NCBI GenBank assembly: GCA_020137815.1
Contig: CM035354.1
Span: forward strand, 7,750,001-7,814,000
DNA length: 64,000 nucleotides
From: Hormiphora californensis
Lineage: Eukaryota > Animalia > Ctenophora
Direction of reading: 5' to 3'
Below the pieces are notes generated by a model. That model did no database searches. It had not been told where the DNA came from and saw nothing but the letters and a program-made list of their open reading frames with translations. Of the stretch, positions 24,794 to 59,435 are shown piece by piece (the stretch's first letter is position 1; the number at the start of each line of letters is the position of its first letter). The position numbers were made by a program, and so were the translations under genes.

Positions 24794-24905
24794 CTTCCTA
24801 AACACGGAAAATTGTTACAGAATCTATTTAGATTTTAGATGTGTCGAAATATTACAAAGCGGGAAAGAGTATTGATGAATTCGAGGCCAGCGACCAAGAC
24901 CCAAG

Positions 24906-25477
24906 CAGGGACGGCGCTCGTGGGTGTCCGGGTGTCCGCGGACACCCAGACCGAAAAGACTGAAAGAGAAAAGAAGAAAAATGGAAAAAAACATCGGTGA
25001 AAACTGCGAAATTTTGGATTTGCGCGCAGCCGGGTGTCCGGAGCTCTGTCGGACACCCAGGTGCACTGCGCGCACCTGTAACGCACGGCAGAGCATAAAG
25101 AGAGTTCTTCCGCGCGCCACAGTGCATTTTGACGTGACCAGGGTGTCCGGTTCACCCAGAAAGTTGGGTGCGCGCGGATGAGTTTTTTCTTGTGAACAGA
25201 AAACTTTCATCTTTTTTTCCATTTTTCACAAAAGGAGTTCAGAAATGCTTAAAATCGTTTAAAAACGCCAAAATGTCAGAAATTTTCGGGGGGCTTCGCC
25301 CCCTCAACCCCCACCGGGGCTTGCAGCCCCTGGACCCTGCCTGCGGGGGCTCTGCCCCCTACACCCCCACCGGGGCTGCGCCCCTGGACCCTGGACCCAC
25401 ACCCCCTGACCGAGGCTACCGCCCCTGGCCCCGGACACCCAGGGACTTGCTGGGCCGAAGGCCCAGCGCCGTCCCTG
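24906..25477. mobile_element. hAT-type MITE
   Basis: TIR CAGGGACGGCGCT/AGCGCCGTCCCTG. 8-bp TSD GACCCAAG at 24898-24905 and 25478-25485. Confidence 0.88.
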
Positions 25478-26908
25478 GACCCAAGACCCAAAATTCGAAT
25501 TTCCACCCTCACACTTTACAACTTAACTTTCGAGAAGCTTAAATGTTAGTTAATAGACACGATAGACTGTTCCTTAAACCCTGTTTAAGTGAACTGCACC
25601 TTCAAAAATCAACAAATGGTGCAAAAAAGGAAAACGTTAAAATCTGGGTGCCTTTCATTGCTAACAATTCGTAGTTTTGGCGCGCGCGACGGGTTAGGGC
25701 TATAAGGAACCATAATAAAGTTCAAGAGCCTCCAAGAGCACCCAAGAGCACCCAAGAGCACATCAGATCAAAGAGGGCACCAGGATCAGGAGACCACCAC
25801 ACTCAGAAGAAGCCACTTCTGAGAGAGCTCCCTATCCAGAAGATACCGCGCGCGGGGGATACCACGCGCAAGAGAGACCACGCGCAAGAGAGACCACGGG
25901 TGTTTTATAACCATCAAAACTTTACCTATGATATTCCTTTCGCGCGTTACGTAACACACCGCTTTTTGCACATGTTGCGGTTTTCAAATTGGTCAATAGC
26001 CAAGTCAGGGCTAATGCTATCAACATTACGGCTAAGGCAACACACTTTTGGAGTACTTCAAACTAGCAGAGATATTTTTCCGTTTAACTGTTCATTAATT
26101 TAGACCAAAAGTGTGTGATAGGGAAAACGCGTTATTTTTTTGTTCCATTCAATTAAATAACACAAGTAAAATCACTTGAAAATAAATCACCACTTGTAAA
26201 TGAAATTCTGTCTACACTCTACTGTGCAAATGTTTAAATGTTAATGTGTCACTTGACTGTTCATGTTATTAATTAAACAGCGGGAAATATATTATGTAGG
26301 TATAGGTTTTGTATTGGAGTTAAGATCACAATTACACTGAAAAATACTCTAGTTGAATTAGGTAATGGTATATAGTTTATAATGTTTATAAACATCTGCA
26401 GTAACACCCGGGTAGAAATAAACGTTCCATTATCTAAAATCTGTAATCCAAAAGTCCATAATCTTAGGGCAACAGTCTCGGTCAGCGGGTAAGGTTCCAA
26501 ACTGTTTTCCCAACACCTGAGAAAGAACATATTAGTTAACACTGGAAAAGGCTTATAGTGCAGTTACATATTAGCTTTCTTGGAAATGGTTAGTGTGGTA
26601 ATGTGGTATAATGCAATATCCTATAATCCCCCAAACTATGATAGAAAGGTGATCTCTCCCACAAAATGATACCACATAATATGGGAAAACAATGTGATTC
26701 TTGATTTTGTTCCCTTGTATTAAGGTGTTGCCCGATTATGATGCCATTAAAATGGTAAATCCGTACCAAGAAAATTGCGGCACGCTGAGATTGGATATAT
26801 CCGAATTCCTACTTGCTTTCTTTGGATTTGTTTGTTCTAATTTTGCTCATAACGAGTCAATAGTAATAACGATTCAATATTAATATAGAGTAAATACCTA
26901 GTATTACC

Positions 26909-28882
26909 TCAGAGTGATTCAAATCGTTCAGTTAGTTCGCGATTGAACACTCCCCACATATTCGTCAGTTGGGCACAGACGAACCCTATTTTGGATATGT
27001 GGTTCTTTATACCGTGACCAACGGTATTCTTCAATACCCTGTATCGCTTCAAGTAACCTATGGTCCTTTCTACGTGGACCCTATAACGACTGATCCCCAT
27101 GCTTTCTGTGGCCTGGGCCCTATCAAATTGGGGTCTTCCTCCCCAGAGACCAGTAGGCATGATAAGGTTAACACCTAAAAATAGAAAAAAATGTTAACCT
27201 CAATCATTATTTTGAGACATCCCCTCGTATATCTCCAACTGGTTAATTTTCTCAGTGGTACTGGTCAGGGTTAAAGAAACTGGCGGTGATGGATGGTACG
27301 GTGGAAGGGCCTAGGAATCGACGGACTGGGCACAGTAACACACTATACGTAGGGTCCCTTTACGGAGGTGTGCTGCTGATATTTCTACTTGACGAGGAGG
27401 CTATGCCCAACTGAACGAACTTGACAATTTGCACCCAACAAAACCTAAAACTGTTACTTTCTGCCTCAAAAATCGAAACAAGAATATCTACATTTAATGT
27501 TTCATACTGCTATGTCCAGACTAAACCAAACTCAAGACTCTCTCAAAGGCATAATGTTACCTAGTTCCAGACTCAGAAGCTGACAAGACAAAAAGCTTGC
27601 GTGAGAGTGCCCCAATACAGACCACAAACAGTTAGAATATCAGAGAAATTTTGTTTGATTTTGGTGTAATTTTGAGCGTGATAGTTTAGCTATACTATCT
27701 TTCATACAGACCACAGACTTTATGACAGGTTGCAACACCGTTCTGTCGTGCGGCAGAGTTTGGTACGCTATAACCTAGAGCCACACACACACACACACAC
27801 ACACACTGCTATGTCTCCCTGCAAACCAAATTCGGGGCTGAAAATTGAAATTGCCTTTTACATATTTATATTACTCAAGCATTATTATAAAGAACAAATC
27901 ATTACGTAGTACATTGTGCGCCGCAATGTGGACCACAATTATGTGTACCACACATTTCCTGAAAACGTTTCAATGAAGATAGAAGTAATGAAGTGATAAA
28001 TTTTGTGAAGATGCAGTTGGTTGCAGTGTGTATGTGTGCTTCTAATTGGTCCTTGCAATTAAAACGGGTGTATCTATCATGGTGGTCATGCTACACACAG
28101 TCAGTTTATCCGTTGAAGATTTCTAAACTTCTTTTTCCATTCGCCCGAATGGGTAAAAATCCTGGCATTATAAATAAATTTTACCTGAAGGAAGTAAGTC
28201 TGTGATCAGAAATCCTCGGTCAACCATTATCTGATCCCCTTCATTGAACTGCCTCAGGAGATGTGATGAAACAACAATAGCTCGGTCGGATGAACTGCCT
28301 GGGTACGCGTCGCTCATGAAAACAATGGATCCACATGGAGCAACTCCAACGAGAAACTTAACACTGTGGAACCCTGTGGGGATTGTGGAGGGGTCATTGC
28401 GGTCGGGAACATAAGGGGCGATTCAAAACGGACGTCCAGGGATAGGAGTAGCCAATTTCGGGCACCTCTGGAAAGAGGAGGGAGGGGGTTGATGGAGTTC
28501 GGACTGTCCCAGGTTTTGAAGAAAAATTTTACTGGTAAACCAATATTGGTTAACTTAAGTTACATGTGGACGAAATTCGGATAGGGAGGAGGGTGGGGGT
28601 CTGGGAAATTCGAACAGGCTTGGACAGAGGGGAGGGAGGGGGTAAAAACGACCAAAAATCATGGACGTCCTTTTTGAGAAGTTACCTTTGTAGTCAGAAT
28701 AAAAGATTCTGCGATCTGCTGGGTTTGAAGGTGGCTCCACCTGCACCTGAAAATAATGATATACAGTCGGACCCCGATTTACCGGGCCCCGATTTACCGG
28801 AACCCCGATTTACCGGGAGGAAAAACTTCCCCCGAGAGAGGAAAGTAACGGTATTTGACCCCGAGAGAGTGATAGCGAGAGG

Positions 28883-28922
<40 letters not shown>

Positions 28923-30801
28923 TAAAAAGGGGTCTGCCAGTGCCAAAAGACCAGGAATTGAAAATCACAGCTAATAGGTACTACTAACAATTACCTCAGT
29001 ACAATCCAAAATTATCCGAACATTTGGATAATCAGCGTAAAATCTGGGTGGCGATGTCTCTTGCGCCCTTCTCAATGATGGTACTTGATTACTGCTGATG
29101 GCCCAGAGTTTGTTATGCATCACATCCATCCATGTTTTCCAAATGCTTGTTACTATACTCTCTGAAACCTGTAAAAACAACAGTTGTTTTTTAATTTACT
29201 CTGATTTACCGGACGAAACCCTCTCCACCGAGAATCCCGGTAAATTATAAATGCACGCAGCAATTTTCGAATTGGAGAATAAAACTTACGTGGAACTCGG
29301 CTGCTAACATGCTATCTGAACAGCCCGCCTTAAACTTTTTCAGGGTAATAAAAAGTTGTGTCGATGTATCTAAGAGAGTGGAGGATAAGGATCGATATAT
29401 CGCTGTCAACATGGTATCACCCGGTGATTGAAGAAACTCCAGCAATAAGTAAAACACTGCTTTATTAGGCAGGCCCGTCTGAGATCTGATCTGAAATTGA
29501 AACGTTGTAAAAAAATAAAATTAAAATAATTCTACCCCATGTTTACCTGAGAGTGAACATTTTAGTCGACACGTCTTTATGGACAGATCAGGTTGTAAAT
29601 TCAGGTTGGTGCCTATACGCATTGCTGCTTTCACCCTAAATTACCCTATGGCCTACCATCTGAATTCTGACCACATCTTACTATTTGGATCACATGTCAA
29701 CCACATTCTTGTCACCCAAAATATATATAATATAAACATATATATAAATATCACTGCGCTGGCAAGCGCAAAGGTGACCATATATGTATACATGATATGG
29801 GGGCAAAGGTGTCAGGGTGGGTTATCAAAAGGCCCTTACTTGAGGCGCACCCAATGGGTGCGCTAGTCTCTATTATAATTTGGAGATGTCGCGTCGAAGT
29901 GGCCGTTCGTTCAGCGGTATTATAGCGACAGACTGCTCCTTCATAAAACACTTTATATGACGAAAGCTGTAAAGCTGTCATTCACACCTTTGGAACTTCC
30001 GGTGGAAGTTTTTAATATTTTCGAATGACTTTTAACATGCCAGTCCCCATAGTTACCAATTCAGTTGCCATGGCAACCGTGTTATTGACGTTGAAAGGGG
30101 CGAAAAGAACCATCTGGCGAAGCCGGGTGGGTTATCGAAAAGCCCTTACTTGAGGCGCACCCAATGGGTTAGTTTTTGGCATAATACTGTGTGATTTTAA
30201 ATGACTGAGACTGCTCTATCTCAAATTGTGTAAAAACTACGGCATCTTTCGACTTGAAATTTTGGGACACGATAAAACATAATTTCTCATTTATTCTCCC
30301 AGATTTTCAGAAAATTTCCTTGTTCCTGAATGAACTTATTGCCATAAAACCTCCTCCAACTTTACACAGTCATATCTCTGGAGTCTAATGAGATAGAGAG
30401 TTCAGATTTTTAGGAGAGACAGATAAGACGATTTTGAATGTTTTGTCTGCTTTACGATTTGATAACTTGTACCGTCTGTTCACAGGAACTGTTTAAAGTG
30501 ATGTAACACGCCCTAATTAGGCCAAATTTAGGTCATTTTACCCCTCAAAGATCACATGTCCAGCTGCTTCTAGTGGGCTAATGAGGCCTCTTACACGAAT
30601 TCGTCACGTGTTACTGCAAGGATACCGATCTCCTTTTTCACCTTGACCAATACAAGCAGACATGATCATGGTGTCTGGAAGTGTTAACAAACTGTAGAAA
30701 ACCAGACAGCTGCTGCTCTCTACTTCAATCACTTTCTCGTTATAAGGTCACGTGACTGGAATTGGGATCTCGACATCAGACATGATCACAGCGGGAAGAG
30801 A

Positions 30802-30888
<87 letters not shown>

Positions 30889-32119
30889 CTTTGTAGACAT
30901 TGTGATCATGTCTGATGTCGAGATCCCAATTCCAGTCACGTGACCTTATAACGAGAAAGTGATTGAAGTAGAGAGCAGCATCTGTCTGGTTTTCTAAAGC
31001 TTGTTACCACTTCCAGACACCATGATCATGTCTGCTTGGTCAAGGTGAAAAAGGAGAGCGGTATCTTTGCAGTAACACGTGACGAATTCGTGTAAGAGGC
31101 CTCATTAGCCCACTAGAAGCAGCTGGACATGTGATCTTTGAGGGGTAAAATGACCTAAATTTGGCCTAATTAGGGCGTGTTACATCACTTTAAACAGTTC
31201 CTGTGAACAGACGGTACAAGTTATCAAATCGTAAAGCAGACAAAACATTCAAAATCGTCTTATCTGTCTCTCCTAAAAATCTGAACTCTCTATCTCATTA
31301 GACTCCAGAGATATGACTGTGTAAAGTTGGAGGAGGTTTTATGGCAATAAGTTCATTCAGGAACAAGGAAATTTTCTGAAAATCTGGGAGAATAAATGAG
31401 AAATTATGTTTTATCGTGTCCCAAAATTTCAAGTCGAAAGATGCCGTAGTTTTTACACAATTTGAGATAGAGCAGTCTCAGTCATTTAAAATCACACAGT
31501 ATCTCTATTATAATTTGGAGATGTTGCGTCGAAGTCGTTCGTTCAGCGGTATCTTAGCGAAAGGCTGCTCCTTCATAAAACATTTCATATGACCAAAGCT
31601 GTAAAGCTTATCAAATCAAAAAGCCCTTACTTCATGAGGCGCACCCAATGGGTGCGCTAGTATATACATATAAATATATTGCACCCTTCTAACTTACGTT
31701 TTCATCTGACGTTGAATCCGTAATCGCTGATCTAGGGATGTTTCTCCAATTTCTCAATGCCTCGACATGTGTTTTGCATAGTCTTAGCAAGTCAAAGTGT
31801 TTCATATCACCCTTATACATGTCTTGGCATACCCGCAACAGACTGAAACGGTTTTGGTGAAAAAACATTGAATCCGTTTAGTTACTGTGTATGCAGTAGT
31901 AGACAGTAGTAGACACATAGCGTTGAGTGTAAACACCATGTATCAATACATGTGTTAGTACCTGAATAGAAGACTGGATATGGGCTCATGCTGTTCCACT
32001 TGCTGCCATTGCCTTCCGTATTTGGACAGTATTCTTCTGCCATCACTCACCGCTTTAGACGGGATTCTAAATATCCCCGGATTGCTGCAACCCGGTATGG
32101 GACATCTTTTGCCGACCAT
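26909..32119 (-). CDS. THAP-like + HTH + DDE_Tnp_4 (Harbinger/ISL2EU) transposase, 7 exons
   Basis: MVGKRCPIPGC...LCKTH (THAP-like); DEN|IRSQTGLP; QLFITLKK..LAAEFH|VSES; catalytic IILDCTE, MVDRGF and RVHVERTIG; FYSDYKG. All junctions are GT-AG and in frame by manual reading. Confidence 0.88.
27517..27804 (+). mobile_element. SINE-like or truncated non-LTR 3' end with (CA)n tail, in a transposase intron
   Basis: 11-bp TSD ACTGCTATGTC (27506-27516, 27805-27815). A near-identical copy lies at 41988-42302. Confidence 0.8.
29751..31660 (+). mobile_element. Compound non-autonomous Helitron-like element with repeated 3' ends (related inverted piece at about 32161-32345)
   Basis: 5' A|TCACTGCGCTGGCAAG. 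Hairpin GCGCACCCA-A-TGGGTGCGC ending in CTAG|T at 29863-29866 and 31657-31660, with a degenerate end near 30170. Confidence 0.6.
30187..31499. mobile_element. Foldback element: about 600-bp near-identical inverted arms around a (GA)n loop
   Basis: 30187-30790 is the reverse complement of 30901-31499 with few differences. TA flanks both ends. Confidence 0.9.
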
Positions 32120-32928
32120 TATACCTACTAAAGGATGGGCAAGTGTAATACAAGGATGGGCTAGTGAAAAACCCATTGGGTGCGCCTCAAGAAATAGCTT
32201 TTTGATAACCCACCCGGCTTCGCCGCATGGTTCTTTTCCCCCCTTTCAACGTCAATAACACGGTTGCCATGGCAACATGGCAACTCTGAGTTGCCAACTC
32301 AATTGGCAACTATGGGGACTGAGTTGTCAAATACATTCAAAAATATTAACAAACTTTCATGGGTAATAATGGAAGAACCAATACAAATCATCACAATACA
32401 ATCCGCCACAATTGTGAGTTTGACAACCAAGCGGCATTGCATGGAGATAGCTATAGAAATTGAGGCAAGAAAGGAGATAGTCGATAAAGAAAGAGAGATA
32501 ATTTTAGAGTTCGATCATTTGTTGTATGCTAGATCCTATGAGGTGTCGAGATCTGATCGTATCTATCTCTTTTGAGCGGCTTTGTGAATTGTGTATTGAT
32601 AGGTCTCCGGGATTCCTACTGCAGTTGGGAATCGAGAGCCGCCCCTTCCTCCTCTCGCACTGAAATGAGAAAGTAATGGTATTGCTCACTAATACATGAA
32701 GGATACTGCACTAAGCATTAGTCCAGATATTACGGATACTCCATACAGCAGGATGATTAAGACCGCAGCCAGATTTAATTTTAGCCTGCTCCGGAATATT
32801 ACGATTATTCGAGACCCTCATGGGGCCCGAGGCCTAGTAATGCACCTAATCTTTGCCCAATTCTAAACGCAAGTTCATCATCTAGTTTCTCATCCTTCAC
32901 CATAATCCCATCATTACATCCCCTATAC

Positions 32929-34158
32929 TCAGTACTCACGAATCTCGAATATTAACGGAATTGCAGAAGACTTGTAAAAGGTGTCGAGTAGTCGTAATGA
33001 GGCGGCAAATGTGGGATCTTTCCGTACCGGGATGCGGATACGTGGGGGTTTCTCAGACCAAATGTAGAAAACTGCTTCCTCTACCCCTAAAATTAAAGTG
33101 TGGGGGTTATCGGAATATTAGTGAAATCGCTGCGCTTCGAAGGAGCTTTATAGGAGCTGCACTGCTTGAATCGGAACACAGTTAAATATTTTAGCAGGCT
33201 GTAGAATGGCCCCTTCCATCTGTTTGTATAATTCAATTTCGTATCTGCCCAGTGCAAGACAATCAGTAGCAAGCACTACAGAAAGTGAATTTGGTTCTGT
33301 TAGTACTGGTTGAATTGGGAGTTATGCTACATCTTCTCTCACCGACCTAAGCAATAGATTTGCCCCTGTATCTGAAACCAATAGCTATCAGTTCGATCCA
33401 TCTCGACTGTGGTTGCGTTTGCACATAAACCCTTCAACCCTGTCACTTTAACCATACGATCACTCCCAATTCCAGCTCGTGATCTTCGGAACCTCTCGAG
33501 TTCTTCAAGTGCAGATTTGCCCTGCATGGTGTACGGGCACTTGATTTCGAGAACTCTGCCGTCGGGAAGTAGTCCGTCCGGCGAGGCTGCTATGCATGGG
33601 TAGTCCTGGTGGATGTGAAGACCAGTCTCTTCAACCTGAAAACAATATTTTTGGCATTATGTTGTAATACAACGCTGAGTTTTCCTGTCTAGTTAAGCTG
33701 TGAAGAAAACATATCATGGCATAGAAAGTGGACCACACAAACAGTTCAGAACAAATATCTTTAATTTAGTAGCATAACAATGTGTGCCACACATTTTCTG
33801 AAAATGTGCTAATACATTGATTTATGAAGAAGCAGCGGTTGTTTCGGTTTGATCAAATTATTAAACTATGACCCCTAGATTATAGTGATAACTCACTGTC
33901 ACATTATACTGCTCTTCATAGTCTCGCCTCGCAACTGGCTCATGTGTTTTACCCCACTGTATCGAAGTTATCCGTCTTAGATCTCGCTGGTCTACAAGAA
34001 GCCGCTTTACATCTGCTTTCAGTGACAAACCTAGGAAGAGTATGAAATTTTAATGGATCAGTCCATATTTTATGCTTTAAATGATGGCTCAAAATGCTCT
34101 AAATTACAAAAATAACTAACCGAGATCGACAGGTCTAGGTAGATTCTTTTACTTAGTT

Positions 34159-34195
<37 letters not shown>

Positions 34196-34198
34196 AGA

Positions 34199-34252
<54 letters not shown>

Positions 34253-36393
34253 TCGAGTTTATACTATGTGGGAGTGACTCTACTTCTTATACTACTGTAA
34301 GCAAACAATGTAATAAATCAGATCTAAATTTTAGAGTTCTCTCTGAAAACAGAAACCTAAATGTAATTACGTGGTGCATATGGTGCGTTCTCCGCCAGTC
34401 CAATCAAGTCCTTGAAGCGGCTGGAGGTAAATCTAAACCTCCTTAGGCTGCAAAACAGCACATTGTCAAACTGCCCGGTGGTAGCCACACTGATTTCATT
34501 TATATCTTGCTGTGTGATGGTCCATCGCGATATTTTAACCTCCACTTCTTCTGCAGAGTCGGCTGTAATAATTTGTATTACCTAGCCAACCTTTTCATCG
34601 AGATATATATCAATGCGCTGGCAAGCACAAAGGTGGCCCCATCCCCTCCCCCCGGAAAAGTGGGCCCGCTTGCCGACAGCGTATACAGATATAAACATTT
34701 CGAATTTTTAGCCCATGGCACTTTTCAACCCCTACTAACTCCGGAACCAGATAAGCTAGGAAGCTGAAATTTGGCACTAAGAAGCTTCACATAGACCTCT
34801 ACTGACGTTAAAAATTTGAAGTGCCTAGCTCGTTCCGGTCGCAAGTTATGACACCACCCCCAAAACAGAAAATTCAGTGTGGGGATAAGGAGATATAGAC
34901 GCTTCACTGTGTAGACCGAACCATACTAGCATAGAGACTTGAACTAAGTTTTATCTGTTAGGGAATCGTTTGGCGCACAATAACATATGTACAAGTTTGA
35001 TTGTTTGATTGTTAGCATGATACTAACCGAGGTTGTAAACACGTTTTAAGTTGAGATGGTTCCACTGAGTACCTGGTACCAATGTTGAGGGAGTCGCCAT
35101 TGTGAAAAGTTTTAATCCATTAGCAGGTAAAACTTCATTTAACTTTGAAACAAACTGCACCTGTCCAACTTCCCAGTTTGGTACCTTCACTTGCCCGTGT
35201 ATATCAACAAATTGCCTTAAAAAATTAGATATCTTTAAATATATGATATTGACGATCTTATCTATTATTCCGTGGAATAAACCACATTTTTATAGCTGAA
35301 GACGTGATACACAGTGATCTCGAAAGCTTCTGTCAATTCATTTGATTTAGTACCATTATACATATCGTTGTCTACATTAAACTAACGGTAAGTGTAGAGC
35401 GAATAGATCTTTTTTGTTCTGATCCCAGTTTTTCTGCGTCTGTTCTTCAACTGTCAACAGCTGTACATCTTGGCCAGGATTCAGGACTGGTCTTCTAAAG
35501 TTATGCGACACTGAAATGATATAAACAAGTAAGTATTGGAACACGAGCTATATGGAGATATAAAAAACATAAATAATGCAGGTTTCTCTAACCGCCAGGA
35601 CATCTATAGGGCTTTATGGACTGAAACCTACATACATGTATTATGAAATAGCGTCCAAAATACCAAAGCTGTATCTACAGCCCAAACTTAATTTTAAAAG
35701 TTATTAATTAATGATATCGAATAACGAACCATCTGTCCGTGAAACTTGATTAGCTCCATGTAAAAGGGTGGCAGCCTTATGCCAGCACTGAACCGTTGCA
35801 AGTCGGCATGAGCAGTATGCTGAAGATATTCCGAGGTTTCCGTTAAACGTGATCTGAGGAAAGATTTTTAGACAATGAATTAATTACATAGTCATATATA
35901 GTCATTGAAAAATGTTATTTTCTCAACTGAACCCCAGCTCAGCTCAGTGTGCCCAGTGCCCACTGCCCACACGACTATCTCAATATTTCTCTCCAATCGT
36001 TTGTAGAGGAAACCATTGTAAACCCCTACCTCAACATTGTGAAGTGTCGTATTAGAATGAGAGCTCAGTACTGTAGCCGTCAGCCGTTTTGTTGAAGGGT
36101 TATACGAACAAACTTGAACATGTCCAGCCAAGTACAGCTGAAATGGTTAGATAAAAGCCCAGGGGGATGAGGAATGATGATTCAGTAATGCGGGGCAAGA
36201 GAAGTGGGAATGGGGGGGGGGGGGCGGGGGTCGGGGTTGAAGGGAGTCAGTAGGGGGTGAGAGGAGTTAAATTTGGTCATTTGCCTAGGCTCTCTAGTAC
36301 TATAAGAAAAGCTAAAATTACCGATTGTCCTTTATTGAAAGAGTAATCATATCCTTGGAAGTAGTTGGAAATCTGGGATATCCGGATGAGCAT
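32929..36393 (-). CDS. SWIM zinc finger + YqaJ (lambda-exonuclease-like) nuclease, multi-exon; ISL2EU second gene
   Basis: YFQG..FNKGQS|LYLAGHVQ; AYCSC...CWHKAATL (SWIM); TTGQFDN..RRFRFTSSRF; IQWGKTHEP; IAASPDG..VLEIKCPY; YWFQIQGQ; FYIW..VRKD. The central exons near 35100-35500 were not fully resolved. Confidence 0.85.
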
Positions 36394-36607
36394 CGTCCTA
36401 AATACTAATGAAACAGAAAGAGTGATATATTTCTCTGCAAAAAGGGTTAGAACTAGGAAATGACATATATAATATACTATACCAAAAAACAAAGGAAATT
36501 TGTTAGGAACACCCGTCGCCTTTTGTCGATACTTGACGCTGCGGGAAATACACCCATTTAATCTGAGCTACTTATTATAGGTATAGTTGTGTACACGCAC
36601 ACACACA

Positions 36608-36694
<87 letters not shown>

Positions 36695-37674
36695 ACACAC
36701 TCGTCCTCGCGTCTTGGTCTGACGAAGGGTGCATTTCCCGCAGCGTCAAGTATCGACAAACGGCCACGGGTGTTCCAAACAAATTTCCTTTGTTTTTTGG
36801 TCTAGTTTCTCAGGATTTTTGTATACAGGTATCATAAATATGCAAATTACAGCTAAACTTAAACCAGTTTATACCGATATTCGTAAAATTTTACATAAAT
36901 TATGCATAATTAATGACTTTCCATATCAAATCAAGATTTTATATAGCCTATTACACGTAGAATATTCGATTTATGGGAGGTCTTCCCCAGGACAAAAAGC
37001 TCTAAATCCAGCCGTTTTCGCTCTATATGTTTTGCAAAAATGTGGTGCGTATGTTTGGGACCCCCCTCGTAACTTTTGAACGGAACGATCGATCGCGATC
37101 CACTTGAAATTTTGAACACTAATAGATATTAGGCATTAGCTTTACATACAAAATTTCAGCTTCCTAGCTTGTTGGGAACATGGTTTAATAGGCGCTCAAA
37201 AAGGGCGAAAGTTGCATCCGTATGGTATACTGCACTAGCCCCGAATCGGGCGAAATTAAATTTTCCTTGCCTGAGTTTTTCCTTTCAGATTTGATCTTAT
37301 AATGTTCTAGGATGACCTTAGAATGGGTGGGATGGTTTTTTCATTGCTGGGGGCTTTGTCCCCAGACCCCCTTTAGGCCACGGGGCACTTGCCAGTGCAG
37401 TGATACATATTGTATTTGAAAACTAACTTAATTGGTAGAGATAATTAAATGTCCACCGCTACCTGCTACACAACTGCTCATGCTCCTTCATAAACTCTCC
37501 CTTTCTAAAAATAGATCATTTGTAACCAGGAAAAATACAAAATATTTGTATAACCGGATATAATTCTTCGTTATCGTAACATCTAAACACAATTCTTTAC
37601 GGCAATTGTATAGAAGATAGGCTGAGGTGCAATACACGATGAAGTGCAAGTAGGCTAACAAATGGTCCTATTTG

Positions 37675-39156
37675 CTATAGAAGATATTCTTCTAACTTCC
37701 GTTTGATACAGCGGCACCCATTCCGTTTCAAGCATCTTTGGCATCTCGGCATTTTCTGAAAAAATTGTTTTGTTTAAACCCTTTTTACATCTTACTACAG
37801 TCGGACCCCGATTTAGTGGCATCCTCGGGGGAAAAAATCCTGCCACTAAATCGGGGTGCCACTAAATCGGGTTCAAATAATGTTAATTTTCGTATATCGG
37901 GGGAATAAAATCCTGCCACTAAATCGGGGGCCACATGATCACATTGGAGGATCTGATCCCCTCACCCATGGATCGGATCACATTATTGGGATCTGATCTC
38001 ACATCACGACTGCCCCTGTCATGGTCACTTAGAGGTAGAGAGATTAGAGAGCACGGCCACAGTCAATGAAGTTTTTTCTAGATTTGCGATCGATACGATC
38101 GCCCCAGTTTCTAGTTTCAACGGGTGCTCTACTTCAACGGACTTTCTAGTTCACAAAAATCTAATACTTACCCATCTTCCTTTATTAAAGTTAAATTCAA
38201 TGAGGGAAATTCCCAATTCACGCTCAAGGTCACACTTGTTGAAGTATTTCCGCTGGGTCCGCGTGCTAAAACGTGATTGAAGATGAGCTAACGGCTAACG
38301 CCTAACAAATCTTAATTAAAAGATAGGAATGAGTGGCATGGTAGTGAGGATTGTGATGACCTATCCACACGTGCAAATAGAGGGGGGGTTGCAAAGGTGG
38401 TGCCCTGGGTGGCTGGGGGGGGGTGTTTGTCGCGTGTCCCTGTGTGTGTTTTGGGGCCGCCATGATCGCCAAAGCTATTCTACCTACGTACCCCATTTAT
38501 TCTCTACACAGCTACAATTCTACGGATCTTTATCACCTGATTATACATGTTATTCAGCGGGATTTCCCTTGATCTGTATCACCAGCACTCTACCACTACC
38601 AACCTCCATATTCTTTACTCCGACATGGAGAGACTAAGAGTGAGAGGGGGAGAGATACATAGAGACGGGTGGGGGCCTGTTGTAGGACTTCAATGGGCTT
38701 TCCAGTCTTAATTAAAAGATGCAAATGAGTGGCGTGGTGGTGATGACCATCCTAGCACGGTTGCCAAGGAGGTTTCATAGCCCCCTACGCAGCGGGTGAT
38801 TGAAGGCTGCACATGCGGGTTGGTGCAGCAGGTGGGAGGGCCGAGGGGTGCTCCTAGGTGAGGGGAGTGTGGGGATTCGGGTCAACGGGTACTCTACTTC
38901 AACGGGCTTTCTAGTGGCATTATATGAATTGTACACTGTACCGCAGTCGAACCCATATTTTCACTCCTATAAGCATTATCAATGATATACTACCAATTAC
39001 TTAATATATATATATCTTACAATCACGTCAATTACTATCCCTTACTTACTTTAAATACAAGGTTCTCCTGATAACTTTATATCTTCCATTTCTGGTATAA
39101 CGTAGAAAGTTCTGCTTTTTCCAGTTAGGCCCCAATTCCTATAATAGTAAGGAATA

Positions 39157-39216
<60 letters not shown>

Positions 39217-39444
39217 GAGATAGAGAGATAGAGATAGAGAGAGAGAGAAAGAGGGAGAAAGAGAGAGAAAGAAAGAGAGATCCCATCCTTCTAGGGCGGG
39301 TTCAGATCGTGATGTGATCCGATCCCCAAAAGTGTCACCAATGGAATAGTATAGGATGTTAGATTGGATTCTCATTAGCAAAAATATACTCACCGGCGAG
39401 GCAACAGGTGGTGTCATGGTCAGCCATGGATCCCAAAATGACAT
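37675..39444 (-). CDS. 104-aa MBD-like (methyl-CpG-binding domain) protein with Cys-rich tail; exons 39444-39394, 39138-39050, 38265-38172, 37755-37675
   Basis: Manual splicing (GTGAGT, GTAAGT and GTAAGT donors; phases 0, 2, 0) gives MSFWDPWLTMTPPVASPELGPNWKKQNFLRYTRNGRYKVIRRTLYLNTRTQRKYFNKCDLERELGISLIEFNFNKGRWKMPRCQRCLKRNGCRCIKRKLEEYLL. This follows the MBD pattern PxLGPxWK...R...Y...K.EL.R.LG...FDF..G. Confidence 0.72.
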
Positions 39445-40032
39445 TTTCCTTACTACGAAAGAAATTGTTAGATAAACAAGATTATCAGAACTTTTAATTG
39501 GAAAGGGTGATGGTAGTTTAAACGGGTGATTACCGATCGGGGAGAAAAACGAAAGAAATGAAAAGAAACTGAATTCTATAATAAGAAAACGTTGGCTGTT
39601 GGCAATAATAAAACATTTGCAATTACTTAATTTAACATTTATAAAGCACAATCACTTTATATAGCCGAGCGAATATAAATTCTATTCGGTCACCCGGTTA
39701 CCGAATAGACGTTATGGTTATAATATCATTTACTGAGCACCTAAAATGATATATTATATGTAAACAAAGGAACCTTTTATAACAATGGTTCAAATCAGTC
39801 TCCAACTCTCAAGTTGTTAACAATTAATCAGTTATTCAACATGAACATTATCTGAAATATATGAAGCGATCGCTTACTACTCGAGTATTAAAATATACCT
39901 ATAATGGATTCTCTCGCTCTTGGCTGCAATTAATAGTTTTCTGCGTCTACAATAAAATTAAATTAATTCTGTCTGATTAATAAATCTGTTGAAAATAATT
40001 TAAAAAACAACCCTTTCAAACATGTTAAAATT

Positions 40033-40815
40033 GGCAAATATCGATTTGCGGGAGACGTAGTATAGACGTAGTAGCGACGTATTATAGACGTAGTATAGAC
40101 GTATCATAGACGTATTATAGAAGTATTACCGACAGACGTACTCAAGACGTACTAAAGATGTAGTCAGACGTAGAATAGACGTAGAATAGACGTAGTATAG
40201 ACGCCTTAGCGACGACAAAAACGTATTATAGACGCACTATAGACATAGTAAAGACGTAGTAAAGACAAATCAGACGTACTATAAACGTACTTATAGACGT
40301 TACGTCTCAACAAAAACCTTATTGCCCGAGATCTTGCAAGACGCACTATCGGCAATTAAAGACGTATCAAAGACGCCTTCAGAAATGTTGACACATCCCA
40401 AGGAAACTTTTTGAAAATTCGTTTATAATATGTCTCACCAAATTCTTTTGCTTCGTTCGTCTATGATGCGTGCGAAAAGTGTCTATAAACTTCCTGAGAA
40501 TATCCCAAAGTTTGTAAATTGGTCTATAGTGCGTCTCGGGCAATGAGGCTTTTGTTAAGACGTAACGTCTATAAGTACGTCTATAGTACGTTTGATACGT
40601 CTTTGCAACGTCTACAGTGCGTCTATATAGAGTACGTCTATAACACGTTTTTTGTCATCGCTAAGGCGTCTATACTACGTCTGACTACGTCTTGAGTACG
40701 TCTGTCGTCTGTCGGTTATACGTCTGTCGGTAATACGTCTACAATACTTCTATAATACGTTTATAATACGTCGCTACTACGTCTATACTACGTCTCCCTC
40801 AAATGGGTATTTGCC
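40033..40815. mobile_element. Mutator-like (MULE/foldback) MITE with internal AGACGTA repeats
   Basis: Long imperfect TIRs beginning GGCAAATA. 9-bp TSD GTTAAAATT at 40024-40032 and 40816-40824. Confidence 0.85.
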
Positions 40816-40884
40816 GTTAAAATTTATAGAAATAAATTAAAACTTTCATTATCTGTGATTTATCATTATTAGCTGAGCAGCAGA

Positions 40885-47920
<7,036 letters not shown>

Positions 47921-48267
47921 GCCTAATAATTATATAATATTATAACATCACTGCGCTGGCAAGCACAAAGATGACCATTCCTTCGCCCAACAACTCCATA
48001 CACGCCCAATGGCTCGTACTTGTAATGTCGCACTCGCCCTGACAAACCGAAGCCGGGGTCTCTGACAGTATAGTAAACCGTACTATATAGGACTTGAAAA
48101 AATCGATATTGAAAAATCAGGGGGTGGCGGCCAACATCGGCCTGATATTAATTAGTATAGACACTTAATTTAATATTGAAAAAATATTTTGCGGGGGAGA
48201 GCACTCCCGTAAGCAATCTTTGATGCTGAGAGCTCTCAGTTGTTACAGAAATAAATGCTATCACAGA

Positions 48268-48770
48268 ATTCAAATTCAAATTCAAATTCAAATAAACTGC
48301 ACACAATTCAAACTACCAGCATGCAGTGAAGGGTTGAGAATTGACAACTGTTTTATAGTTTTAATTAAGAACAATTCTGATATAGATTTATACTCTGGGT
48401 GCCACCTGTTATAGTGGAATGTCTACATTCGATGGTGGAGCCCGGGACGTGCGGTTTTATTTATTGATATATTTCTGCCTCTCTGAACTCATTAAGGACC
48501 GTCACATAGCCACGCACCAGTGGTCTGTCATGGAAGTGTTTCTCAACGATTGTTCCATAACCGCGGTGCCCTGAAGCCGAAGGAGTTATACAGTTGGCCT
48601 GCTCGTTTGGCTTCTGCCCAGTAAGGATATTTCTGGATTTTCGACTGTACTCCCAACCGACCTGTCTTGAACTCCATTTCATCACAATTGGGGACAAGCC
48701 CCTGATAGATCTTCCAAACGTGGATTAACTCATACCTTTGGCGTCTCCTCTGAAGGGACATGAGGTCAAG
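48268..48770 (-). mobile_element. 3' fragment of a CR1-group LINE
   Basis: LMSLQRRRQRYELIHVWKIYQGLVPN...NSFGFRAPRLWN. Short (ATTTGA)n tail near 48270-48292. Confidence 0.7.
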
Positions 48771-50167
48771 CGAAGAATTCGGAGGTTGGTAGTGGTAGAG
48801 CGCTGGTGATAAACATCAAGGGAAATCCCGCTGAATAACATAGAATTAGGTGACAAAGAGCCGTAGAATTGTAGTTGTGTAGAGAATCAACGGGTGGGAT
48901 GGTAGAAAGGCTTTGGTAATCATGGCGGCCCCAGCAGTAGATCCCAAAACACCACAGGAACAACAGTACAACACAGGAACACGCAACAAACAACCAATAA
49001 CATGCACGTGCAGTATCCCCCTCCCATACCCTCCCAAGCTACCTCCTTGGCAACCCCCCACCGTGGGATACTCCATACTCATCTTCATCACGACGTTCAT
49101 TTGTACTTTATAATAGAGACTAGAAAGCCCATTGAAGTCCTACAACAGCCCCCCCACCCGTCTCTATGCACCCCCCTCTCACTCTTCGTCTCTCCATGTC
49201 GGGGTAAAGAATAGGGGGTTTGGTATAGTGGTAGAGCGTTGGTGATAAACATCGAGGGAAATCCCGCTGAATAACATGTAGAATCAGGTGGTAAAGATCC
49301 GTAGAATTGTAGTTTTGTAGAGAATCAATGGGGTACGTAGGTAGAAAGGTCACCATCATCATCACGCCACGCATTTGTACTTTATAATATAGATTGTCAG
49401 AATGCATTTTCCATTTCATTCTTCTTCCGCGAAAGCCACGGATAGAGATGGTGACACTTCTGACCATCGAGAAGCTTCAGCGGAGCAGTCACCAATCCCC
49501 ATGACTGTTTCCTGGTTTGCTTGCCTTCGGGGCGCTATTACGATCTGGGTGGTTGGTGGCCTGTTTACAGGTGCGCCCAGCCAAAGCAAAGCATTTGTAC
49601 TAAAATGGCTCTATAACCGCCAAAGTTTGGCGGCCAAACCACTCACCGTTTTGGCTAATCCAAAGTTAATCTGGTAAGATTTGTCACAGCCTAATTCTAA
49701 TCCAAACCCCAACCCTTACTCTGACCCTACATTCGCCCTAACCCTAAAAACCGTGAGTGCTGATACTCCAACCACCCAGATTTTAACGCTGGCCTTCAGT
49801 TCCGCAATGTGTTTTATTGAAAAATTCAAAAAAAATAATAGAATTTTTTAATGGGGCGCGCAAATACAACGCCGCGCTGGTCTCTTCTGCGCGTGGTGTC
49901 CCATGCGCGTGGTATCTTCTGGGTGGGGAGCTCTCTTTGATGTGGTGCGCTCTAGGAGTGGTGTCTTCTGGAGGTGGTGCGCTCTTGAATGCGGTATCTT
50001 CTGAATGTGGTACGCTCTTGGATGTGATACGCTCTTGAATGTGGTGCGCTCTCAGGCGTGGTCTCTCTTCGATGTAGTGCGCTCTTGGGTGCTCTTGGAG
50101 GCTCTTGAACTTTATTATGGTTCCTTATCCGTTAGGGTCTGGTTAGGGTTTGGTTTGGGGTTATCGG

Positions 50168-50439
50168 CAGGGGCGGTGCGCGGCGTTCATTCACGAAAAA
50201 AATTTTGGGTCCAGCGCTGCAGAAAATGTAACACGCGAGATGGGTCCGGACCCAGCGCTGCCGCATAATTTTTTCTTGCGCGCATTCGCATTTTCAATTG
50301 AAAATCGGTCCGTTTTTTCACTTTTTTTGGTTGTTTTTGCCGATATTTTCACTTTTTAGCAAGTTTTCTCATTTTCTTCTCCTCTCTCGTCCAAAAAGTG
50401 GGTCCTGGACCCACTGGACTCAGCCTTGCTTCGCCCCTG
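50168..50439. mobile_element. hAT-type MITE
   Basis: Ends CAGGGGCG/CGCCCCTG. 8-bp TSD GTTATCGG at 50160-50167 and 50440-50447. Confidence 0.85.
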
Positions 50440-51294
50440 GTTATCGGTTAGGGCTATCGATTCTCTAACAGATACCGTTTAGTTTACTCAAATTGGCCAT
50501 GTGGTTGCGTGGCTATAGCCGTTTGAAAAAAGTCGGTCTAAGTGTACTCTTTTGGTAGCGCGCACCTGTAAACAGGCTGCAAGGCACCCAGATTATAATC
50601 GCGCCCTGCAAAAAATTTAAAAAACTAATTTAAAAATTCCTTAAAAACGAGTTCAAAATTTTTACACTTTTAGATATTTATTAACGGTCGCGCGGCTTTT
50701 TTCAATAATGCGCGGATTTTATTTGCGCGCACCATCAAAGCTCTGGCAAGGCTTCTATATTTAATTCTGAGATGCTCAATTACTTACAGTAATATCCTCC
50801 TCCTCTCAACGCAACTTTATAGTAGAGCTTCGACAACAAAGTCAGTTGCGGTGAGAGGAGGTCCGACTTGGACAATTCCCGATCACATTTCGTATGCCCA
50901 AGCCATTTCAACGAATAGAAAGAAAACGAGAAAATTTGTAAGTGGTAGAAATGTCAAAATGGAATGACTAAGAAGAACGGTTTCAGTAAGGAAACAAACA
51001 GTTATTTAACTTCAAATAAATCACATCAATAGTACGCATTGGGTCAGACCCGGGTCAGAAAACATATTTCTCTAGCCAAGTTTGTTTAGCTCACTATAGA
51101 TACGGGTACAAGTAGTCCGTTAAAACAGTGTCACCGCACTGGCACAACTCCACAAATAAAGACACAAAGTTCTACCCCCTGGAGGGGTCCATCTAGTCTT
51201 CAGGTGCAACATTGACGATATGTTTATGCAACTTGGGAATATTACTTGTTCCACATTGAGACCTCACTTTGCCTCATACAGGGTAAGGGGTGTC

Positions 51295-58143: not shown

Positions 58144-59435
58144 TCAAGATTCAAAGCAGAATGGGACGGGATCAGAGGATCGTGCCAGGCACATAACCTT
58201 GAACCGTGCCCCCATTTGATCGGTACTACACAGGAAATCAACTGCATGAATGACAGCATCCCTCTTTTCCTCTGGAACACTACTATACATCTGTTTAAAC
58301 CTCTCCCCAATACCCATGAGGGTCAGAAAGTCACCCTGAGGTACAGGCCCATATGCAGTAATGTTCTCCCCCACTGATTGGGACAAGTCCCTAAAGTTAA
58401 CATCTGCAGTCAGGTCACACAACCCCAGATCTTCTAATGGGTTAACCTGCTGGTGATCTCTGAATGCCCTGAATGTTAACTCTGATGTTAACTCATTCTC
58501 TCCGTAGTCAATGATCAGAGCCGCTCCCCCACTCTCAGATATTCTCTCACACAGAGTCTGTATGATACGCTGGGACATGGGCGAGTATTCGAACTGGGTA
58601 CCTGCTGCAGCACCTAACAAGTCCTCCCTGTGGTCCAGGGCTATAGCCTTACCAGTCCTGTAGGTAGTGTAATGTAACACATCCTGATCTGGATCACAAT
58701 CCACCATGATCTCTACCCACCCTTTATCAGCTGTCTTCTGGAACTGGTGGACAGGGAGGGCATCAAAGAACTCATTCATTATGTAGATGGATGGAACTGA
58801 CCTGGGTATATGATCTAGAAGAGAATACCACCTGAATTTACATTTGTGTATCCCAGTCCTAGCGAGATATTTCTCTTTCTCAAATATATCAGTAGGCGTT
58901 ACACGGGTCTCTCCCTCCCCACACAATAACTTCTCCTGCTCCCTCACAAACTGTTCAGAGATTTCAACTAGATTAGCAGTTAACTTGGGCTGCCGGCCCA
59001 AAAACGCAGGCCCAATAATCCCCACTGTTTCTATCAGGTCCCTCATGAGGGTTCCCCGACCTGGTCCTAGCTCAGTAAACTGTATGTCTGTTGTGTATTT
59101 GGCCTGTTGCCAATGGAGAAGGGACCACGCGGCGAGAATCTCACCAAAGACAGGCGTCAACTCGGGAGCTGTTATAAAATCACCCTTGTGACCAATCCTG
59201 GCTGCCTGAAGGGGGTCAGTACTGGTAATATATGGAAAAGAAGAAGGGTATCAATCATATTGTTCGGACTACTGCTTGAGTATCTACAAAAGGTCGAGGG
59301 AGAGAGAGAGAGATGAGAGACGAGAGAGACGACGAGAAGAGGGAGGAGAGACGAGAGAGAGATGAGAGAGAGAGGAGAGAGACGAGAGAGAGAGAGAGAG
59401 AGAGGATGAGGAGAGAGATGCAGAGAGAGAGGGAG

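Follow-up and report, generated by a model that had tools for sequence, protein, structure and literature searches.

ISL2EU elements, which belong to the PHIS group, combine a transposase carrying DDE_Tnp_4 and HTH domains with a YqaJ gene, inverted ends and AT flanks, as laid out in the accessible portions of two descriptions (PMC4482050, PMC4122938). The same portions give them mostly two ORFs, an average length of about 4.8 kb and an A-AT-T target, and a GG start of the ends as usual, not invariant (PMC4482050).

Capture of a methyl-CpG binding domain (MBD) by a transposon is already published for Copia retrotransposons. In CopiaMBD of centipede and spiders, an LTR retrotransposon has the domain fused within its Pol ORF, copies number in the hundreds, the DNA-binding residues are kept and methylated DNA is bound (PMC6673714, accessible part). 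A survey of transposon-fused chromatin domains cites MBD capture, in the portion of its text available to us, only to CopiaMBD and a methyltransferase paper (bioRxiv 10.1101/2021.11.30.470311). MBDs contact CpG with two arginines and owe their methyl selectivity to a tyrosine, and the C-terminal coiled coil of MBD2/3 serves to recruit NuRD (PMC5240623, in the sections available).

Here we describe an ISL2EU-type element with a small MBD-like gene. A four-gene ISL2EU lineage of this kind is not described in the literature searched: no publication was found on ISL2EU with an MBD or methyl-CpG binding domain (Repbase and subscription journals lie outside this search), and a wider search of the DNA-transposon literature gave 'MBD domain' in none of the matches listed. 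Our leading reading, at a rough probability of 0.4, is that a captured MBD was repurposed as an accessory of the element and would bind its subterminal repeats, through the remaining arginine and a basic tail, independently of methylation.

Ends and genes of the ISL2EU-type element

Within the window (the whole 64,000-nucleotide stretch that we analysed), the element covers 24.4 kb (25704-50126) and contains four predicted intron-rich genes in the same orientation (Table 1). The first-pass annotation had described the MBD-like gene as a small stand-alone gene encoded by a transposon, and it does lie inside this ISL2EU-type element, between the inverted ends.

Table 1. Genes, ends and associated repeats of the element, with positions in the window
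Feature	Position	Strand	Details
Transposase gene	26909..32119	-	7 predicted exons, 397 aa, no internal stop
SWIM-YqaJ exonuclease gene (ISL2EU second ORF)	32929..36393	-	9 predicted exons, 462 aa, no internal stop
MBD-like gene, exon 4	37675..37755	-	81 nt, basic CxxC-x5-CxC tail, stop
MBD-like gene, exon 3	38172..38265	-	94 nt, C-terminal half of domain, donor GTAAGT, phase 0
MBD-like gene, exon 2	39050..39138	-	89 nt, N-terminal half of MBD-like domain, donor GTAAGT, phase 2
MBD-like gene, exon 1	39394..39444	-	51 nt, ATG, 17 codons, donor GTGAGT, phase 0
Zinc-finger gene	40885..47920	-	4 predicted exons, 325 aa; absent from first-pass annotation
Left terminal inverted repeat	25704..25749	+	46 bp, CpG-free; AT outside at 25702-25703
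Right terminal inverted repeat	50081..50126	-	Perfect complement of left; AT outside at 50127-50128
Left subterminal repeats	25750..25910		Short motifs common to right end, one with CGCG
Right subterminal repeats	49860..50080		17/33/50-bp periods
Left end of small host repeat interrupted by element	25641..25654	+	14-bp inverted end; partner at 50581-50594
Nested CpG-rich hairpin repeat	40033..40815		o/e about 2, own inverted ends, 9-bp direct flank, MULE-like

The termini form a perfect 48-bp inverted pair (25702-25749 and 50081-50128) whose core occurs nowhere else in the window. Because AT is palindromic, the outer AT is indistinguishable from two further bases of the repeat; flank alignments give 63 when it is included and 62 when it is not. 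When joined, the outer flanks make up one host repeat: an uninterrupted copy can be aligned with them through the junction at a score of 62-63, compared with 39 and 34 for either flank alone. Three short motifs are common to both ends and scarce elsewhere, the ends accounting for 10 of 15, 4 of 4 and 3 of 3 of their occurrences in the window. Unlike the GG start and A-AT-T target of ISL2EU, the ends begin with AA and the flanking bases are T and C.

These departures from the usual form (in the accessible part of PMC4482050), and no second element copy having been found, would fit a 25702/50128 pair that is a short repeat occurring twice, the MBD-like gene being a host gene beside a transposon. 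We consider this highly improbable: the flanks reconstitute a single host repeat, composition places the gene with the element, and it has an element-type gene on each side.

Other boundaries were considered. Alternative GG-starting, AT-flanked ends in 24800-26950 and 39445-51000 were rejected, as was TAA/TTA as a Harbinger-type duplication, the sequence differing between the two sides. The hairpin at 40033-40815 has direct flanks of its own, which exclude it as an end of the element and mark it as a separate insertion.

The transposase has a CxxxxC N-terminus and, as in ISL2EU, an HTH and a D-D-E triad. Pfam matched DDE_Tnp_4 (E 1e-14 and 8e-11) and, weakly, HTH_Tnp_4; despite the CxxxxC start, a Pfam scan of two transposase exons gave no match to THAP, the N-terminal domain expected in ISL2EU. 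The second gene encodes the YqaJ exonuclease that accompanies the transposase in ISL2EU, with Pfam matches to YqaJ (E 3e-6 and 2e-4) and SWIM (E 0.014). Its exon model is supported by BLASTP to relatives, and use of another donor would give 447 aa. A full HMMER search yielded 322 YqaJ hits, and a word-index search with the YqaJ exon 0 of 297. Pfam found no match in 25900-26900, and no fifth gene is placed there.

The zinc-finger and MBD-like genes sit upstream of the transposase and SWIM-YqaJ genes. The exons of the former (47920-47803, 47592-47474, 41749-41624 and 41499-40885) agree in phase over a 5.7-kb intron, and the predicted protein has four C2H2/C2HC-type fingers, after which the coding sequence runs through a 15-bp minisatellite. 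On single exons, zf-C2H2 scored E 0.003-0.09, under the Pfam gathering scores.

Nested insertions are numerous in the element, and all are intronic or intergenic according to the gene models. Foldback repeats with GA microsatellite centres lie in element introns and spacers (29815-32359 and 36476-36806), the arms at 30184-31502 being 467 bp long and perfect. The second intron of the zinc-finger gene holds a plus-strand LINE (about 42000-47460) with an SGNH/GDSL-like first ORF and an intact endonuclease-RT frame of 1212 aa, bounded on both sides by long CA arrays. Its 5' 290 bp recur within a transposase intron (27515-27806) as a 96% copy that ends in a short CA run. A minus-strand frame at about 48260-48740 looks, by eye, like the 3' tail of a further LINE reverse transcriptase and closes with a hexamer repeat.

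Among the host genes (1436-24793 and 58144-59247) many are single long ORFs; the element genes are all four intron-rich. The single-ORF host genes include NPRL3, a REC114-like gene, MGM101, an LDLa-repeat GPCR-like ORF and two tandem methyltransferase-like ORFs. A strongly C-skewed tandem array occupies 4634 to about 7900, its 34-bp unit repeated about 88 times or more.

Exon model and MBD likeness of the small gene

The first-pass annotation had proposed four short exons with compatible phases and strong donors encoding 104 aa, and this arrangement is present on the minus strand at 39444-37675. The predicted joined frame has 104 codons and a stop, phases 0/2/0 and AG acceptors. Apart from its three donors, no GT(A/G)AGT hexamer occurs on the minus strand in 37400-39800, compared with 53 such hexamers on both strands of the whole window, and no other ATG-to-stop chain with three such donors exists in the window. 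The residue blocks and the CxxC...CxC tail quoted in that annotation are likewise found in the joined frame.

How much weight the splice pattern can bear was gauged with resampled windows. At least one comparable chain appeared in 20 of 60 of them (this null is richer in donors, 82 versus 53), so the pattern by itself is not much above chance and wants further support. Some comes from coverage: exons 3 and 4 each lie on a single contig (run X1) identical to the window, whereas divergent repeat contigs account for 23 of 30 bins, mainly intronic, at a depth of at least 6,800, which is not a copy number. No coverage of the exons appeared in one presumed RNA run or in run X7, and neither run enters the evidence. 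Exon 2 and part of intron 2 (38877-39148) are found on a contig of a second organism (run X5) with 2 letter differences and 4 gaps, and the sole exon-2 difference listed changes the amino acid at Thr32.

The 315-nt coding sequence has a dinucleotide score of +6.25, on the side of the element class. The classifier was positive in 8 of 8 element chunks and 6 of 34 host chunks, and a single one of the 34 host chunks reached 6.25; its host genes are all intronless, a possible confounder.

A chance chain or a dead, unexpressed relic would account for the chains seen in one third of resampled windows, for the altered Thr32, and for the lack of any protein relative among the matches listed in exon-containing protein searches. 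It is nonetheless quite unlikely, given that the same chain is the best MBD join in the window, that its composition is element-like, that its exons avoid the high-depth repeats and that it occupies the space between two further intact element genes in the same orientation.

A different use of the exons can also be drawn. The phase-0 donor of exon 3 is in frame with acceptors at 36372 and 36137, and by skipping exon 4 it could join exons 1-3 to the SWIM-YqaJ gene, giving an MBD-SWIM-exonuclease fusion. We regard such a fusion as very unlikely: exon 4, which lies in low-copy sequence, offers a strong acceptor and a stop, an ATG at 36393 belongs to the YqaJ gene itself, and YqaJ relatives do not carry the domain (none of 150 reaches a score with the MBD profile, the best E being 0.17, and PF01429 was found in 0 of 34 scanned with Pfam).

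As references for the domain, real MBD2/3 sequences were fetched, two of which were confirmed as PF01429. A profile of 14 MBD2/3 sequences scored the joined frame at 4.1 bits, with 23 of 5000 shuffles as good, and a profile of 42 sequences gave 9.7 bits, aligned over positions 5-65 of its 67, with 0 of 5000 shuffles as good. Both scores came from our own MBD2/3 profiles, the gathering score of Pfam PF01429 being 21 bits, and 9.7 bits corresponds to an E of about 0.9 when scaled to Pfam's 24,736 models. The larger profile consists of 28 of 120 listed hits (at least 45 profile positions each) and 14 loci. Since two exon rows formed part of the query behind these hits, a small bias favouring the match is possible; conversely, profile scores are biased against the protein because the seeds were chosen with a central motif that it lacks.

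The alignment is colinear over a domain of about 65 residues: protein residues 17-78 are aligned, the hydrophobic core is kept and two splice junctions are crossed. With the 42-sequence profile, the true exon join ranks first of 8543 possible joins (10.3 bits, E 0.21), compared with 4.8 bits for the top-scoring join without exon 3, and exon 3 outscores all other six-frame pieces of the window, 2711 in total, on the MBD2/3 profile (E 0.77). hhalign gave P 1.1e-4 and a probability of 57%, and in pairwise scoring 17 of 42 MBD2/3 domains beat the top of 577 decoys. Intron 2 is in phase 2 and lies one codon away from a common MBD2/3 intron; of 83 database fragments with the motif, 46 are interrupted at the Ser following the two tyrosines, the pattern expected from a phase-2 intron at that place.

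A profile broadened with 24 viral MBDs scored 4.5 bits (23 of 5000 shuffles as good, rank 2 of 8543) and one of viral MBDs alone -1.1 bits. On a 12-sequence profile, known divergent members score far above the joined frame (BAZ2A 23.8 bits, plant MBD5/6 34-41). From these scores the resemblance is weak, and specific to MBDs of the animal MBD2/3 type. A strict MBD2/3 motif had no match in viral contigs; a looser one gave 46 loci, of which 45 were translated and 24 retained for the profile, and nearly all 46 represent one MBD family that keeps both arginines.

Searches with parts of the protein were less favourable. Pfam scans of the separate exon pieces gave no MBD-like match, exon 4 having no significant family match, and a PDB sequence search with the same pieces returned nothing MBD-like. 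The exon-3 stretch had no usable match in the ESM Atlas, and in a protein search (84-2000 residues) 0 of 5 candidates scored. An MBD alignment including exons 2 and 3 found, among the 120 of 168 hits listed, none resembling the MBD-like protein as judged by identity to the first MBD row, which was at least 51% in all of those listed. A model of a 47-residue fragment (pTM 0.43) predicts a helix over the expected residues, and fold comparison of the exon-3 fragment model gave no match. The MBD match of the first-pass annotation thus stands in that it beats shuffles, and is tempered by its weakness and by exon pieces that match nothing MBD-like in Pfam or PDB or, for the exon-3 stretch, in the Atlas.

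The alternative, a real element gene whose small basic product has another fold and resembles an MBD by chance, would explain these blanks, the dependence of the scores on the profile (4.1, 9.7, 4.5 and -1.1 bits) and the identity of only 8 of 21 invariant MBD2/3 columns (counted by eye). It fits poorly with a colinear match over most of the domain across two junctions and a kept hydrophobic core, with the first rank among 8543 joins, and with the position and phase of intron 2; the seed motif that the protein lacks also biases the scores downward. We consider chance likeness rather unlikely, and descent from an MBD2/3-type domain probable on the predicted sequence.

Lost residues and proposed role

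In the profile alignment, exon 2 supplies Trp23, the first Arg at position 30, Thr43 in place of Asp and Tyr45, and exon 3 Phe55 in place of the second Arg, the helix and the F-x-F-x-x-G tail. The substitutions of the Asp and of the second Arg suspected at first pass are thereby borne out. Of the two arginine fingers of an MBD2-type reader, Arg30 is present. Tyr45 aligns with the methyl-sensing Tyr, which is Phe in human MBD3, with a possible register shift of one residue. The protein is basic (pI 10.3, 24 Lys+Arg) and stops 26 residues past the end of the domain.

The same annotation had called the protein a reader and a NuRD decoy. 'Reader' is unsupported because both arginines contact CpG and the second is Phe; 'NuRD decoy' is unsupported because the coiled coil is needed for NuRD recruitment and the window has no MBD2/3 tail. 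A profile of that tail, which covers the region after the MBD in part, had no match among the 2711 six-frame pieces (best E 6.7), and the protein has neither the disordered region nor the GATAD2-binding coiled coil of a NuRD subunit. A methyl-CpG reader or NuRD decoy is, on these predicted features, less likely than a DNA-binding accessory of the element. Anti-silencing and a steering of integration are conceivable roles.

That annotation also had the protein shield 'CpG-rich ends'. The 46-bp inverted ends contain 0 CpG, and CpG o/e is 0.62 and 0.86 in the terminal 200-270 bp; blocks of about 70 bp, 140-260 bp inside the ends, are CG-rich (o/e 1.54 and 1.05). In host coding sequence CpG o/e is 0.32-0.84 (8 of 10 below 0.6), compared with 0.68-0.80 in the element genes. 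GpC is depleted in host genes as well (0.53-0.72), so host methylation is weakly indicated.

These numbers bear on whether the protein still detects CpG methylation or acts as a competitor of host MBD2/3, and thereby protects the element from silencing or steers its insertion. The contrast between host and element genes is compatible with methylation sparing the element, the first Arg and the methyl-sensing Tyr are retained, and CopiaMBD (PMC6673714) and VANC (bioRxiv 10.1101/2024.04.02.587720) offer precedents in the parts of these sources available. Yet the second Arg and the Asp are lost, the coiled-coil tail is missing and the inverted ends are CpG-free, and with GpC also depleted the CpG contrast may reflect base composition or element age. 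Methyl sensing or competition therefore appears unlikely. We are similarly doubtful of a related idea, a genomic piece of the host MBD2/3 gene taken up with its intron and retooled to occupy CG-containing repeats and so to exclude host methylation or MBD2/3, which would make it an animal counterpart of the plant protein VANC.

With two mark-reading residues missing, the protein is a more probable binder of the element's DNA than a sensor of methylation. In our preferred reading, that of a captured and repurposed MBD, the gene would be a third stand-alone gene of the element, likely captured from a host MBD2/3-type gene. Capture may have been from genomic DNA, with one intron retained. The captured protein would have lost its methyl-reading residues and kept a small sheet-plus-helix fold, and the one remaining arginine and the basic tail would hold a CG-containing subterminal motif, so that the element's subterminal repeats would be bound regardless of methylation. 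As for this target, we infer purely that the subterminal repeats may be what is bound, and the zinc-finger protein or the transposase could own the shared subterminal motifs. The accessory role might consist of end recognition or of control of the element's own promoters.

If this reading is true, MBD-like and zinc-finger genes beside an intact transposase and exonuclease would widen the known coding capacity of ISL2EU, and the 104-residue protein would be a test case for the redirection of a captured methylation reader.

Comparison with known systems

The element has the transposase, YqaJ gene and inverted ends in common with ISL2EU, as well as AT flanks that may be the 2-bp duplication of the group. 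It differs from described members in its 24.4 kb with nested insertions and in its four tandem intron-rich genes.

With animal MBD2/3 (PF01429; PDB 2ky8, 6c1a, 6cc8; PMC5240623, as far as the accessible parts go), the MBD-like protein shares domain length, block order and core hydrophobics, as well as the first Arg, the Tyr, the C-terminal F-x-F-x-x-G and an intron near the same codon and phase. In contrast, the second Arg, the Asp, the Ser and the P-x-G turn are replaced, and a Cys-rich basic tail takes the place of the disordered region and coiled coil. Judged on its sequence, the gene would work like an accessory gene of the element and falls outside both the methyl-CpG readers and the NuRD subunits.

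The closest case, CopiaMBD, is likewise a transposable element with an MBD, there with affinity to the MBD1/2/3 and MBD4/MeCP2 clades (PMC6673714, in the part available). Here the domain is encoded by a separate intron-containing gene of a cut-and-paste element instead of within Pol, and the second Arg and the Asp are lost.

Extra non-catalytic genes are known from other DNA transposons. VANC of VANDAL elements is one, suggested to be a repurposed host chromatin domain, its domain being unrelated to the MBD (bioRxiv 10.1101/2024.04.02.587720, accessible portion). The Myb/SANT protein of Harbinger elements, domesticated as HDP2, is another, again with unrelated domains (PMC5339849, accessible portion). 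For Harbinger/HDP2 and VANC, binding and anti-silencing roles were tested; any such role of the MBD-like gene is putative. Among these systems, the accessory role that we propose resembles that of the Myb/SANT partner in Harbinger elements.
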